NCBI GenBank assembly: GCA_036339735.1
Contig: JAYZAL010000021.1
Span: 1 to 64,000 of the forward strand
Reading direction: 5' to 3'
DNA length: 64,000 nt
From: Candidatus Poribacteria bacterium
GTDB lineage: Bacteria > Poribacteria > WGA-4E > UBA9662
The translations under genes were made by a program, and so were the position numbers. Below the pieces are notes generated by a model. That model was not told the origin of the DNA, made no database searches, and worked only from the letters and a program-made list of their open reading frames with translations. This document shows, in pieces, positions 60,843 to 64,000 of the stretch (position 1 is the first letter of the stretch; each line of letters opens with the position of its first letter).

Positions 60843-63800
60843 ATGCAAACTTTTACCGATTTATCAGAAGCTCTGGTAAAAAAAGATAAAGTTCAGGTTC
60901 TCGATTTAAGTAATCAGGGCTTAAATCAAGTCCCGATCGAGATTGGCCAGCTGACTAACCTGACATACTTACACTTGGGAGGCAACCAAATTGGAGAACT
61001 TCCACCTGAAATCTTTCGACTTATTAACCTGACTGAGCTTCGAGTAGGAGAAAACCGGATTAACAAGATTCCATATGAAATCGGTCAGCTGACTAATTTG
61101 ACGCACTTGCATTTGGGAGGTAACCAAATTGAAGAACTTCCACCTGAAATCTTTCGACTTATTAACCTGACTTATTTACACTTGGGACGGAACCAAATTG
61201 AAGAACTTCCATCTGGAATCAGTCAACTAGTTAATCTGACGTACTTACATTTACATACAAAGGTAGTCCCATCCGAAATTGGTCAACTAATTAATCTTAA
61301 GCACTTATACTTGGATACAGAAGTGGTTCCATCTGGAATTGGTCAACTAATTAATCTGACGTACTTACATTTACATACAAAGGTAGTCCCATCCGAAATT
61401 GGTCAATGTACTAATCTGATGCATCTGCGTTTAGGAGGCAACCAAATTGAAGAAATTCCACCTGAAATTGGTCAATTAACTAACCTAACTGAATTTAAAG
61501 CGGAAAGACACCAAATCAAGGGCATTCCATCCGAAATTGGACAATTGTCCAATCTGATGTATTTGCATTTGGGAGACAACCAAATTAAAGAGATTCCGCC
61601 TGAAATTGGTCAATTAACCAATCTAACTGAATTTAGAATACAAGGAAACCAGATTAAGGTCATACCGCCCGAAATTAGACAGTTGGCTAATCTGACTTAT
61701 TTACATTTGGGACGGAACCAAATTGAAGAAATTCCGCCTGAAATCGGCCGACTGGCAAAATTGAATATTCTTAGACTGCCATTTAATCAGATCAAAGTCA
61801 TTCCCGCTGAAATTGGTCAACTAACTAATCTAGTTGAATTTAGAATAGGACAAAATCAGATTGAGGAGCTTCCACCGGAAATCGGTCAACTAACCAGTCT
61901 GGCCATATTCGGTGCGGGATCTAACCAAATCGAGAAGATTCCGCCTGAAATCGGTCAAATAGAAAGCCTGCATGTTCTTAGATTGACGTCTAACCAAATC
62001 AAGGAGCTTCCGCCTGAAATTGGCCAACTAACCAGTTTGATGTTGATATCTTTGGAAAACAATCAAGTTCAAACGATTCCACCCGAATTTGGCCAGCTAG
62101 GTCACTTACTCGAACTAAATCTTTGGAATAATATAGTAGACGTTATTCCTTCTAAAATTGGGTGCCTGACTAAACTGACAAGTCTCGAACTAGGAAGTAA
62201 CCGAATCACATTCATTCCTTCAAATATCACTCAGCTCAAACAATTGACCGATTTACATTTGTCATTTAACCAAATTAGGGAGCTACCTAAAGACCTATTC
62301 CAAATGGCTAAACTGGAAGTCTTAAGTGTAGAATCAAATTCAATCCAATCTTTACCTGATGAAATAAAAAATCTAAAGCGACTTAGAATCTTAAATCTGA
62401 AAGATAATAACTTAACTAGTCTACCAAACGAAATCGATCAACTGACTAACTTACAGGCTCTGAATCTAAGCCAAAATCGATTGTATCAACTAACAGAAAA
62501 AATTACTGACTTGTCCAGCCTAAAACAACTTTCTTTGGACCAAAATAATATACGGTTTTTGCCTTTATCAATTGAGAATTTAGTTGACCTGAAACGACTT
62601 CACTTAGGTGGAAATCTTTTAAAACAATTACCAATTGAGTTGGGTAAATTAACATGTTTAACAGAATTGGATTTAAGTGAAAATAGAATCTACGAGTTAC
62701 CTGTGGAAATCGGAGATCTAAAAAGTCTGGTTTCGTTAAATCTGAGCCAAAACTATCTAGATGCTATACCATCATCGATTCTTGACTTACGCCAATTAGA
62801 AAATCTTAATTTAGAAGGAAATGTTAGAGATGACATTGTGACGGACTTTGGTAAATTATTGACCTACCGACAGCAAATGGAACACGCTCTGGAACAATCA
62901 AGAATTTCTCAAAAAGAGGCAGAAATTGCGAATCAAGCTAAAAGTCAATTTCTGTCTCAAATGAGTCATGAAATTAAAACTCCCATGAATGGTGTCATTG
63001 GTTCTCTAAACTTAATGAGTGAAGAAAAATTAGACACAGAAGAACAACAACATCTACAACGGGCGAAGAGGTCAGGACAACACTTACTGAGTGTAATCAA
63101 CGAAATTCTGCAGTTTTCTGCTTTAGAAGAAGGGTCAATAACTTATCAACAGTACCCATTTAACTTAGTTGAGACTTGTCAGCGAGTGTTAGACATGCTT
63201 TTGCCTCTATCTCAGCAAAAAAACTTGGACTTACAACTGAATTACCCATCTACAATAGTAGGAGACTGGATAGGAGATGAGCAAAAGATTAAACAGGTTT
63301 TGGTCAATCTTTTGGGTAATGCTATCAAGTTTACGGCTGAAGGAGAAGTCCAGCTAAAACTGAAACACGTTAATTATGGTATCAGAATAGAAGTGATTGA
63401 TACGGGAATTGGTATTGCCCAACAACAAATAGAAACTATTTTTGAATCCTTTAGACAAGTAAGTCAAGGGACAAGTCGCCGATTTAGTGGGACTGGTCTG
63501 GGCTTGACCATCAGTCAACAATTTGTCGAGGGAATGGGTGGTCAAATAGGAGTAAATAGTCAACTAAATCAAGGGTCAACGTTCTGGTTAGAGATACCTT
63601 GCAAAAAATCCGAGTCAAAATCGAAAGTATCAGAGATATCGATTAGACCCAACAAATTGGGTGTCTATACTGGTAAAAAAGTTCTGATAGTAGATGATGA
63701 GTTTATCAATCGAGAAATAGTAACCAGGTATTTAGAAAGATTGGGATTTAGTGTCGATCAGGCAGTGGAGGGAGAAGACTGCTTGAAGCAATTTAAATTA

Positions 63801-64000
63801 GGAAGATATGATCTAATTGTAATGGATTTGCAAATGCCTGTCCTAGACGGATTTCAAACGGCTCAACAGATCAGAAGATTAGAAGAACAAGAAGTCGTAG
63901 ACAAAAGAGTTCCAATTTTGGCACTATCGGCAAGTGTTACGGGAAAAGTTTGGAACAAGTGTAAAGCGGTTGGAATGAACGGATACTTGAGTAAACCTTT
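60843..64000 (+). CDS. LRR-sensor hybrid histidine kinase (about 29 LRRs - coiled coil - HisKA - HATPase_c - REC), truncated by the window end
   Basis: Open frame from ATG 60843 to the window end. LRRs LxxLxLxxNQIxxIPxEIGQLxN to ~62823; H-box AKSQFLSQMSHEIKTPMN (His709); N-box QVLVNLLGNAIKFT; DTGIGI; F-box; GTGLGL; REC VLIVDD...IVMDLQMP (Asp995)...ALSA...YLSKP. Confidence 0.95.
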   Translation, partial: MQTFTDLSEALVKKDKVQVLDLSNQGLNQVPIEIGQLTNLTYLHLGGNQIGELPPEIFRLINLTELRVGENRINKIPYEIGQLTNLTHLHLGGNQIEELPPEIFRLINLTYLHLGRNQIEELPSGISQLVNLTYLHLHTKVVPSEIGQLINLKHLYLDTEVVPSGIGQLINLTYLHLHTKVVPSEIGQCTNLMHLRLGGNQIEEIPPEIGQLTNLTEFKAERHQIKGIPSEIGQLSNLMYLHLGDNQIKEIPPEIGQLTNLTEFRIQGNQIKVIPPEIRQLANLTYLHLGRNQIEEIPPEIGRLAKLNILRLPFNQIKVIPAEIGQLTNLVEFRIGQNQIEELPPEIGQLTSLAIFGAGSNQIEKIPPEIGQIESLHVLRLTSNQIKELPPEIGQLTSLMLISLENNQVQTIPPEFGQLGHLLELNLWNNIVDVIPSKIGCLTKLTSLELGSNRITFIPSNITQLKQLTDLHLSFNQIRELPKDLFQMAKLEVLSVESNSIQSLPDEIKNLKRLRILNLKDNNLTSLPNEIDQLTNLQALNLSQNRLYQLTEKITDLSSLKQLSLDQNNIRFLPLSIENLVDLKRLHLGGNLLKQLPIELGKLTCLTELDLSENRIYELPVEIGDLKSLVSLNLSQNYLDAIPSSILDLRQLENLNLEGNVRDDIVTDFGKLLTYRQQMEHALEQSRISQKEAEIANQAKSQFLSQMSHEIKTPMNGVIGSLNLMSEEKLDTEEQQHLQRAKRSGQHLLSVINEILQFSALEEGSITYQQYPFNLVETCQRVLDMLLPLSQQKNLDLQLNYPSTIVGDWIGDEQKIKQVLVNLLGNAIKFTAEGEVQLKLKHVNYGIRIEVIDTGIGIAQQQIETIFESFRQVSQGTSRRFSGTGLGLTISQQFVEGMGGQIGVNSQLNQGSTFWLEIPCKKSESKSKVSEISIRPNKLGVYTGKKVLIVDDEFINREIVTRYLERLGFSVDQAVEGEDCLKQFKLGRYDLIVMDLQMPVLDGFQTAQQIRRLEEQEVVDKRVPILALSASVTGKVWNKCKAVGMNGYLSKP

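Follow-up and report, generated by a model that had tools for sequence, protein, structure and literature searches.

Gene structure and domain organization

We analyzed a 64,000-nucleotide stretch of DNA (hereafter, the window) from Candidatus Poribacteria bacterium, namely, the first 64000 of the 70899 bases of contig JAYZAL010000021.1 in assembly GCA_036339735.1. The gene at the 3' end of the window encodes a predicted hybrid histidine kinase fused to a leucine-rich repeat (LRR) solenoid. A first-pass annotation, made from the DNA of the window alone, had described this gene as one uninterrupted frame without a stop and had recommended extending the contig to find its end. The frame is indeed open from the ATG at position 60843 on the forward strand to the end of the window (1052 amino acids (aa)), and the stop codon at contig positions 64074-64076, 76 bases past the window, terminates a protein of 1077 aa, with nothing after the receiver domain (Table 1). 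The gene is intact, its phosphorelay residues are conserved, all its parts are under purifying selection, and several paralogs within a small clade have inherited the fusion.

The start codon is probably the ATG at 60843, given that the N-terminus of the protein fits the conserved motif with which family members begin, M-x-x-[YFH]-T-[DE]-L-S-[EQ]; inspection by eye revealed no clear ribosome-binding site upstream. A promoter and terminator scan yielded 10 promoter-like sites, compared with 9.6 expected, and no terminators.

Ten Pfam families match the 1077-aa protein, and all of these are LRR, HisKA, HATPase_c or Response_reg families. The LRR matches include LRR_8 (E = 1.5e-74) and LRR_14 (E = 3e-93), and are followed by HisKA at residues 699-764 (E = 1.8e-17, above the cut-off), HATPase_c at 811-920 (E = 1.7e-27) and Response_reg at 947-1052 (E = 2e-22). 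In the same scan, no model of PAS, GAF, HAMP or HPt (histidine phosphotransfer) domains matched, nor did any protein kinase, Roc GTPase, COR, NB-ARC or NACHT model. The protein has no signal peptide, and its highest 19-residue Kyte-Doolittle window scores 0.91, far under the level of a membrane helix, so no membrane segment is expected. Across a set of 34 family proteins, such windows reach at most 1.36, and no signal peptide or transmembrane segment was found in any of them. Pfam and hydropathy thus agree with the first-pass annotation that signal peptide, transmembrane, PAS, GAF and HAMP segments are absent and, along with the AlphaFold2 (AF2) model described below, with its view of the LRR solenoid as the only candidate input domain. 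The available sequence evidence supports the assignment of the protein as a soluble, cytoplasmic hybrid histidine kinase in which the solenoid is the sole candidate sensor part.

Table 1. Predicted features of the LRR hybrid histidine kinase gene (positions in the window; residues refer to the 1077-aa protein)
Feature	Position	Strand	Basis or remark
LRR hybrid histidine kinase gene (1077 aa)	60843..64000	+	last 25 codons and stop at contig 64001-64076
LRR solenoid, residues 17-672, 29 units	60891..62858	+	Pfam LRR_8/LRR_14, unit register, AF2
DNA tandem periodicity (69, 138, 60 bases), N-terminal LRR units	60948..62036	+	Tandem Repeats Finder
Three irregular 20-residue LRR units (residues 132-191), without Asn	61236..61415	+	unit register; kept in ortholog
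Kinase-proximal LRR block (residues 422-651), common to all family members	62106..62795	+	alignment A1, entropy gradient
Cap motif DFGKLLTY (668-675), LRR/helix transition	62844..62867	+	alignment A1
Linker helix (674-698), continuous with DHp helix 1	62862..62936	+	AF2, linker length series
HisKA (DHp) domain; His709 codon 62967-62969	62937..63134	+	Pfam, alignment, PDB match
HATPase_c domain with N, G1, F and G2 boxes	63273..63602	+	Pfam, alignment, PDB match
Receiver, residues 947 to ~1066, past window end; D995 codon 63825-63827	63681..64000	+	Pfam, alignment, PDB match

Paralogs, orthologs and distribution of the fusion

The genome from which the window comes (denoted G000) holds three intact LRR-kinase genes, C21 (the window gene, 1077 aa), C39 (929 aa) and C77 (743 aa), as well as two remnants. 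The first-pass annotation had called for independent data across the junction between the LRR and the kinase. Contig record 2 of DNA run X10, a run from another study, extends over positions 62679-64000 with 3 differences and, being continuous over this region, bridges the junction, which is also shared by the three paralogs, by an ortholog in a public genome and by at least 30 protein clusters. The clusters come from a collection of 5.8 billion proteins, where the domain layout was scored over the 120 clusters listed; among these, 30 combine LRR, HisKA, HATPase and REC (receiver) domains, and 18 of these are near-identical 743-aa variants. The only source names among them are 'ATP-binding protein' and 'hypothetical protein' of Candidatus Poribacteria bacterium.

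Contigs of public genomes were scanned with the LRR/kinase junction (241 residues) as the query, and 80 loci were kept, of which only L019 and L020 match all 241 residues. The ortholog at L019 is 90% identical over the query and is flanked by the same neighbors as the window gene (327-aa, 479-aa and convergent 416-aa genes) in the same order. At four other loci, L022, L039, L060 and L070, the matches reach into the LRR part, but these candidates were rejected because their N-termini contain PAS, membrane or other segments and no LRR.

Matches spanning both the LRR and the kinase were detected in 3 of 176 genomes of the same phylum: that of the window, G059 of the same genus, and G058 of another genus in the same family. 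Elsewhere among the 176 genomes, there were only kinase-only matches with 35-37% identity, and in G060 and G061, only fragments of the family were found. In G058, the 743-aa query produced 41 matches with E-values of at most 1e-15 on several contigs (for example, C73:8874-12203 and C55:9779-11950); many of these are fragments, and others are frames interrupted by stops or, in some cases, ordinary kinases. This genome encodes a 1118-aa frame with LRR, kinase, receiver and HPt domains, as well as LRR-plus-kinase frames on other contigs; the assembly is 80% complete and consists of 530 contigs, so that the copy number is uncertain. As judged from these comparisons, the family is of recent origin, has a narrow distribution and is turning over.

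No LRR-kinase outside this clade was found in the searches that were run, none of which was exhaustive for independent fusions or amounted to an architecture census. In a representative search with P0003, the best 150 matches were giant LRR or kinase-only proteins, and phmmer identified both parts only in P0014 (its own cluster) and P0137; this ranking favors long repeat proteins and hence is not a census of LRR-kinase fusions. The Protein Atlas, queried with the whole protein and with residues 150-460, returned only HisKA or kinase-receiver clusters, a blank that shows neither novelty nor absence.

Several degraded copies were observed. In G059, the copy at C20:49890-51721 is decayed, with 10 and 4 in-frame stops in the two matched stretches. 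In the genome of the window, a remnant at a contig end (C104:134450-134832, the same as L100:2450-2832) contains an 88-aa frame that encodes the N-terminal cap plus about 2.5 LRR units. This frame adjoins, in a different reading frame, the tail of a receiver (MPELDGF...) that continues beyond the contig; the remnant is either a deletion pseudogene or an assembly collapsed at a repeat. Another receiver tail, at the start of contig C47 (positions 3-209), is 49% identical to residues 674-742 of P0003 and might mark the end of a fourth paralog that was truncated in the assembly.

The runs containing the sequence are labeled as marine or seawater metagenomes. Contigs from two RNA libraries match positions 62372-62522, 62733-62883 and 63098-63355 without differences, and the second of these segments crosses the end of the solenoid; in X15/X16, parts of the gene have no RNA-contig cover. 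DNA carry-over is possible in RNA libraries, so these matches are only a weak hint that the gene is transcribed.

The LRR solenoid

The solenoid consists of 29 LRR units, namely, one at residues 17-39, 24 regular units of 23 residues each, all in one register, three units of 20 residues, and a terminal one from residue 652. The first-pass annotation, which counted 28 full repeats and a terminal one, thus arrived at the right total, but three of its full repeats are the short units at residues 132-191. These lack the Asn position and three residues (L-x-x-L-x-L-H/D-T-K/E-V-V-P...) and are retained in the L019 ortholog. They form an irregular patch in the otherwise regular solenoid, where the AF2 model gives longer strands. 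This model of the protein has a mean predicted local distance difference test (pLDDT) score of 82, mostly above 90 for residues 17-650, and displays the alternation of strands and helices in the solenoid. At the DNA level, the N-terminal half, which is the part where the paralogs differ in unit number, is periodic, with 66-82% matches according to Tandem Repeats Finder.

The paralogs differ in the number of LRR units, with 29 in the 1077-aa protein, ~23 in the 929-aa protein and ~15 in the 743-aa protein, whereas the last ten can be aligned in all family members, with conservation that increases toward the kinase. In the alignment of 16 family members (denoted A1), invariant LRR columns occur from residue 508 on, and the entropy of the concave positions drops from 2.1-2.3 in units 422-490 to 1.0-1.2 in units 583-651. 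Across the paralog clades, the entropy is the highest for the concave positions (1.65), followed by the rest of the surface (1.34) and the core (0.32). Variability of this kind in the concave face would be expected if the paralogs differ in ligand specificity.

Within lineages, the LRR is under purifying selection. The ratio of nonsynonymous to synonymous substitution rates (dN/dS) between C21 and its ortholog is 0.22 in the N-terminal LRR, 0.33 in the C-terminal LRR, 0.085 in the linker, 0.16 in the kinase and 0.13 in the REC domain; the values for C39 and its ortholog are 0.22, 0.16, 0.20 and 0.11, so that all parts are below 0.35. Among 19 variants of the 743-aa paralog, the mean identity is 98%, and the LRR is less variable than the kinase and the receiver. 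A solenoid that is variable between paralogs and conserved within lineages fits stable, paralog-specific ligands and argues against an arms race.

The kinase and receiver core

All the motifs of the kinase and receiver that the first-pass annotation had reported as intact were located: the H box (SHEIKTP) with H709, N826 of the N box, the G1 box (DTGIGI, 853-858), the F box (866-872) and the G2 box (GTGLGL, 883-888) and, in the receiver, the DD pair at 951/952, the phosphoacceptor D995, S1029 and K1051-P1052. In alignment A1, H709, N826, D853/G855/G857, G883/G885/G887, D951/D952, D995 and K1051 are invariant in 16 of the 16 sequences, and so are F867 and F870 of the F box. In the AF2 model, the DHp (dimerization and histidine phosphotransfer) helices at residues 674-724 and 732-762 are followed by the catalytic domain and the receiver. 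The best solved relative of the kinase is 7p8e_A (E = 1.1e-63), to which the N, G1, F and G2 boxes align; 6qrj_A is another hybrid kinase among the solved structures. The best NCBIfam matches are TorS (E = 9.5e-108), BarA and LuxQ, with scores far under every curated equivalog cut-off (361.6 compared with 676.5 bits for TorS).

The protein therefore has the sequence signature of a HisKA-type kinase and, with the fused receiver, that of a hybrid kinase, and is predicted to be catalytically active. It does not conform to the unorthodox tripartite kinases (TorS/BarA/ArcB): it has no HPt domain and no predicted transmembrane segment, and its equivalog scores are under the cut-offs.

A quick maximum-likelihood tree of the kinase-receiver region was built from 57 sequences, including 18 LRR kinases (the near-identical 743-aa group was thinned to 3); seven kinase-only sequences in which the receiver is absent or distant (P0032, P0042, P0053, P0054, P0056, P0066 and P0070) were left out. 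The 18 LRR kinases fall in one clade with a support of 100, together with three kinases that lack an LRR: P0057, with PAS and HPt domains; P0048, with no recognized input domain; and P0059, with a multi-transmembrane N-terminus and an HPt domain, which is the sister of the HPt-bearing LRR kinases P0034 and P0036. The nearest relatives carry conventional input modules, and accordingly, the LRR occupies the slot of such a module. The distribution of the LRR on the tree requires two changes, either one gain and one loss or two gains. P0059 (1288 aa) contains several predicted membrane helices in its first 250 residues, then ~500 residues without a Pfam match and finally the same kinase core; it is nearer to the HPt-bearing LRR kinases than any other non-LRR protein in the tree and illustrates how input domains are exchanged within a single kinase lineage.

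The connection between the solenoid and the kinase

The last LRR unit is followed by the cap DFGKLLTY, in which F669, L673 and T674 are invariant (16 of 16). Next comes the helical linker quoted in the first-pass annotation, which was found at residues 676-700. In the AF2 model, a single helix spans residues 674-724 and includes H709. DHp domains dimerize, as is well established for histidine kinases.

The distance from T674 to the predicted phospho-accepting His could be measured in 30 of the 34 family members, which contain 12 distinct linkers. Eight of the 12 consist of whole heptads (28, 35, 49 or 56 residues), three are 31 residues long, and one is 27 residues long. The changes in linker length by whole heptads suggest a coiled-coil signaling helix.

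Candidate phosphorelay partners

Because the protein contains no HPt domain, transfer of the phosphoryl group beyond D995 would need a separate one. Only two HPt matches were detected in the genome, one inside a 1015-aa hybrid kinase encoded on contig C77 and the other in a stand-alone 131-aa protein encoded on contig C1. The relatives P0034 and P0036 contain C-terminal HPt domains, and the one in P0034 shares 37% identity with the stand-alone HPt over 107 residues (E = 7e-22). Of the 176 genomes of the phylum, 4 encode this type of HPt, and these belong to the two genera in which LRR kinases occur; it is a stand-alone protein in the genus of the window and is fused behind the kinase in G058. 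For the complex of the receiver (residues 940-1077) with the stand-alone HPt, structure prediction yielded a score of 0.59, compared with 0.02 for the best of 3 controls, with at least 86% contact agreement between runs and a partner pLDDT of at least 83. The mark applied in these predictions is reached by 58 of 80 solved complexes and by 2 of 110 mismatched pairs, and at scores of 0.60 or less, only 7 of the 80 solved complexes reached it, along with both passing mismatches.

Within L099:9027-10670 (locus numbering; contig C1), the stand-alone HPt gene lies directly upstream of genes for a phosphonate-type periplasmic binding protein and an ATP-binding cassette (ABC) transporter on the same strand. 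A gene for a binding protein (L004:1533-2564) that looks similar by eye is located ~3.8 kb upstream of the C77 paralog, which may be a coincidence. The 1015-aa hybrid kinase with its own HPt (C77:65347-66870; L005/L010) is encoded ~17 kb downstream of the C77 LRR kinase; the kinase core of this 1015-aa protein shares 36% identity with P0003, and G059 contains a 1015-aa frame with a similar match (35%).

Comparison with known systems

The protein shares the core HisKA-HATPase-REC motifs with kinases of the TorS, BarA, ArcB and LuxQ type, and some members of the LRR-kinase family also have a terminal HPt, as these kinases do. Unlike them, the LRR kinase contains no transmembrane segment, periplasmic domain, HAMP or PAS; its input would be the LRR, and the HPt is a separate gene in this genome. 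Among solved structures, the best relatives of the solenoid are the Leptospira proteins LIC11098, LIC12759 and LIC10831 (4u08, 4u09, 4u06), LRRD1 and SHOC2 (E-values from 2.5e-75 to ~1e-56), which belong to the same class of 23-residue repeats. No histidine kinase domain is named or matched in any of these chains, whereas here, the solenoid runs directly into the kinase.

In the ROCO family, exemplified by LRRK2 (LRR-Roc-COR-kinase), a cytoplasmic LRR is located N-terminal to a kinase in one polypeptide. The protein described here differs in that Pfam detects no Roc or COR domain and in that the kinase is a histidine, not a Ser/Thr kinase. A functional analogy can be drawn with the plant LRR receptor-like kinases (LRR-RLKs) and nucleotide-binding LRR receptors (NLRs), in which an LRR recognition module is coupled to a signaling enzyme; the ectodomains of plant LRR-RLKs match the solenoid at E-values from 2e-52 to 1e-40. 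In contrast to these receptors, the LRR here is not extracellular, there is no transmembrane segment, Ser/Thr kinase or NB-ARC/NACHT domain, and there is no sign of diversifying selection within lineages.

By the source names, the family belongs to the same phylum as the Poribacteria for which eukaryote-like repeat proteins and an LRR-rich proteome have been reported (PMC3909097). According to the available part of that article, LRR proteins are abundant in Poribacteria, often contain a signal peptide or transmembrane segments and are proposed host-interaction factors, unlike the LRR kinase; this part does not mention an LRR-histidine kinase fusion, although the supplementary gene tables might include one. 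The accessible portions of five further articles (PMC8195603, PMC10463195, PMC8638967, PMC10710014, PMC7781564) are not about such fusions, and at the level of search listings, the literature on 'Pelagiporibacteria' contains nothing on this gene. Literature searches turned up no published description of an LRR-histidine kinase fusion, in agreement with the first-pass annotation, the author of which knew of no characterized example.

Proposed mechanism and alternative explanations

The mechanism that best accommodates these observations is the sensing of a conserved intracellular ligand through the LRR, with the signal passing via a coiled coil to the DHp domain and the split-off HPt serving as the next relay step; we estimate its probability at slightly better than even (about 0.55). 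In this kinase lineage, the LRR solenoid would have taken the place of the membrane or PAS module that normally provides the input. The variable LRR units in the N-terminal and middle parts would bind, on their concave face, a ligand that is most likely a protein or a peptide and that would differ between paralogs but stay the same over time. The signal would then pass through the conserved kinase-proximal units and the DFGKLLTY cap to the helix that is continuous with DHp helix 1, probably within a dimeric coiled coil, and would alter autophosphorylation at His709. From His709, the phosphoryl group would be transferred to Asp995 of the fused receiver, then to the 131-aa stand-alone HPt encoded on contig C1, and on to a putative response regulator.

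Several observations weigh against this mechanism. Substitutions between orthologs are not enriched on the concave face, where they affect 20 of 112 positions, equal to the 44 of 234 in the rest of the surface; therefore, at the level of individual sites, nothing points to a binding surface within a lineage. The ligand is neither known nor predicted, and the kinase activity itself is a prediction from sequence. In the monomer model, the linker helix has a pLDDT of 42-52, a level to be expected where a helix depends on a dimer partner, and the 27- and 31-residue linkers, present in 22 of the 30 sequences measured, break the strict heptad phase, which therefore is not strictly fixed. On the side of the relay, no response regulator or HPt is encoded next to any of the three paralogs; the first-pass annotation had suggested looking for one downstream, and although nothing of the kind adjoins the gene, the matching stand-alone HPt was found on another contig. 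No regulator is encoded near that HPt, which adjoins the operon of the phosphonate-type ABC transporter, and G060 has the HPt but only fragments of the kinase. The predicted complex of the receiver with the HPt lends weak support to their interaction, given that REC-HPt complexes have already been solved, so that passing the mark may reflect only likeness to these.

Among the alternatives, the LRR might be a scaffold or an autoinhibitory element without a sensing role, which either anchors the kinase to a fixed partner or site, in the manner of SHOC2, or folds back on the catalytic or receiver domain, with the signal entering via the receiver or a partner. SHOC2 is indeed among the solved LRR proteins closest in sequence (E ~1e-63), the LRR is highly conserved within lineages, and the lack of concave-face enrichment between orthologs would be expected as well; furthermore, LRRs of the ROCO/LRRK2 type regulate their own kinase. 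However, the greatest variation between paralog clades is at the concave positions and the number of units ranges from 29 to ~23 to ~15, for which different ligands are a better fit than one anchor, and the LRR is located where related kinases carry PAS or membrane input modules. We consider this possibility unlikely, albeit far from negligible. At the opposite extreme, the fusion could be an artifact, that is, a chimeric assembly of an LRR gene and a kinase gene or a decaying pseudogene. The assembly is a draft of 107 contigs and decayed copies of the family exist, but the recurrence of the same junction in three paralogs, a second genome, at least 30 of the listed clusters and the contig from an independent run, the absence of stops, the intact motifs and dN/dS values well below 1 in every part make the chance of an artifact practically nil. 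The proposal that the LRR acts outside the bacterium, as part of a eukaryote-like repeat protein involved in interactions with a eukaryotic host or grazer, likewise appears very hard to sustain. Family members, L019 and L020 are labeled Candidatus Poribacteria bacterium, a group for which abundant LRR proteins and a role in host interaction have been put forward in the available part of the relevant study (PMC3909097), but no family member has a signal peptide or a transmembrane segment, the complete, conserved kinase-receiver module needs cytoplasmic ATP and relay partners, and the source runs are labeled as marine or seawater metagenomes.

The first-pass annotation had further suggested that the receptor might sense phage or other foreign proteins inside the cell, and that the phosphorelay would trigger defense, as in an innate immunity-like system. 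The birth-and-death dynamics of the family would suit such a role, with three paralogs and remnants in one genome, 41 matches (including fragments, frames with stops and some ordinary kinases) in G058 and copies with stops in G059 and G060, as would the tandem duplication of the N-terminal units at the DNA level and the concave face being the most variable surface between paralogs. Against it stand the purifying selection on the LRR (dN/dS 0.22-0.33), the absence of concave-face enrichment in substitutions between orthologs, and the 98% mean identity of the 19 variants of the C77 type, in which the LRR varies less than the kinase and the receiver. No effector domain is fused to the protein, and matches in PADLOC-DB v2 are weak, at E-values of 2e-6 and weaker, to receiver-like and ATPase-like pieces (the receiver-like part of SduA at 2.1e-6 and weaker, and PDC-M43B at 9.7e-6 for one paralog). 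The neighboring genes are metabolic, encoding a GFO/IDH/MocA oxidoreductase, a sulfatase, an M24 aminopeptidase, a ceramidase-like protein, a glucuronyl esterase and a pyrroloquinoline quinone (PQQ) propeller protein, and gene order is kept at the ortholog locus. Purifying selection, metabolic neighbors and the absence of a defense model match leave phage sensing possible but unsupported, with the turnover of the family as one feature in its favor, and a dedicated defense receptor is, in our assessment, highly improbable. A broader idea, which we regard as speculative and rather improbable, is that these kinases are a prokaryotic equivalent of LRR immune or surveillance receptors in which a His-Asp phosphorelay provides the signaling machinery: the concave surfaces of the paralogs would recognize different foreign or cell-state proteins, the repertoire would turn over by duplication of repeats and genes followed by decay, and all would share one stand-alone HPt. 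The pattern in G058, with its 41 matches and LRR-kinase frames on several contigs, hints at such turnover of a repertoire. The sensing of a conserved intracellular ligand, paralog by paralog, remains the mechanism that we favor.

Implications

To our knowledge, the sensory modules of histidine kinases are nearly always of the membrane, PAS, GAF or Cache type and bind small ligands. The fusion described here is unusual, being a rare and so far unstudied domain combination in a small, dynamic and lineage-restricted family of marine Poribacteria-like genomes. The uncultivated host, the narrow distribution and the ligand not being known limit its value; within these limits, the family provides natural material on how a rigid solenoid drives a DHp helix, with 29, ~23 or ~15 repeats mounted on one conserved transmission module, linkers that differ by whole heptads, and relatives in which the HPt is either fused or split off. 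It is also a possible chassis for engineered protein-sensing two-component systems. In eukaryotes, the same design problem has been solved with other enzymes, in LRR receptor kinases, NLRs and ROCO proteins. As the sole input, the LRR of these Poribacteria kinases would link an intracellular bacterial phosphorelay directly to the recognition of a ligand the size of a protein.

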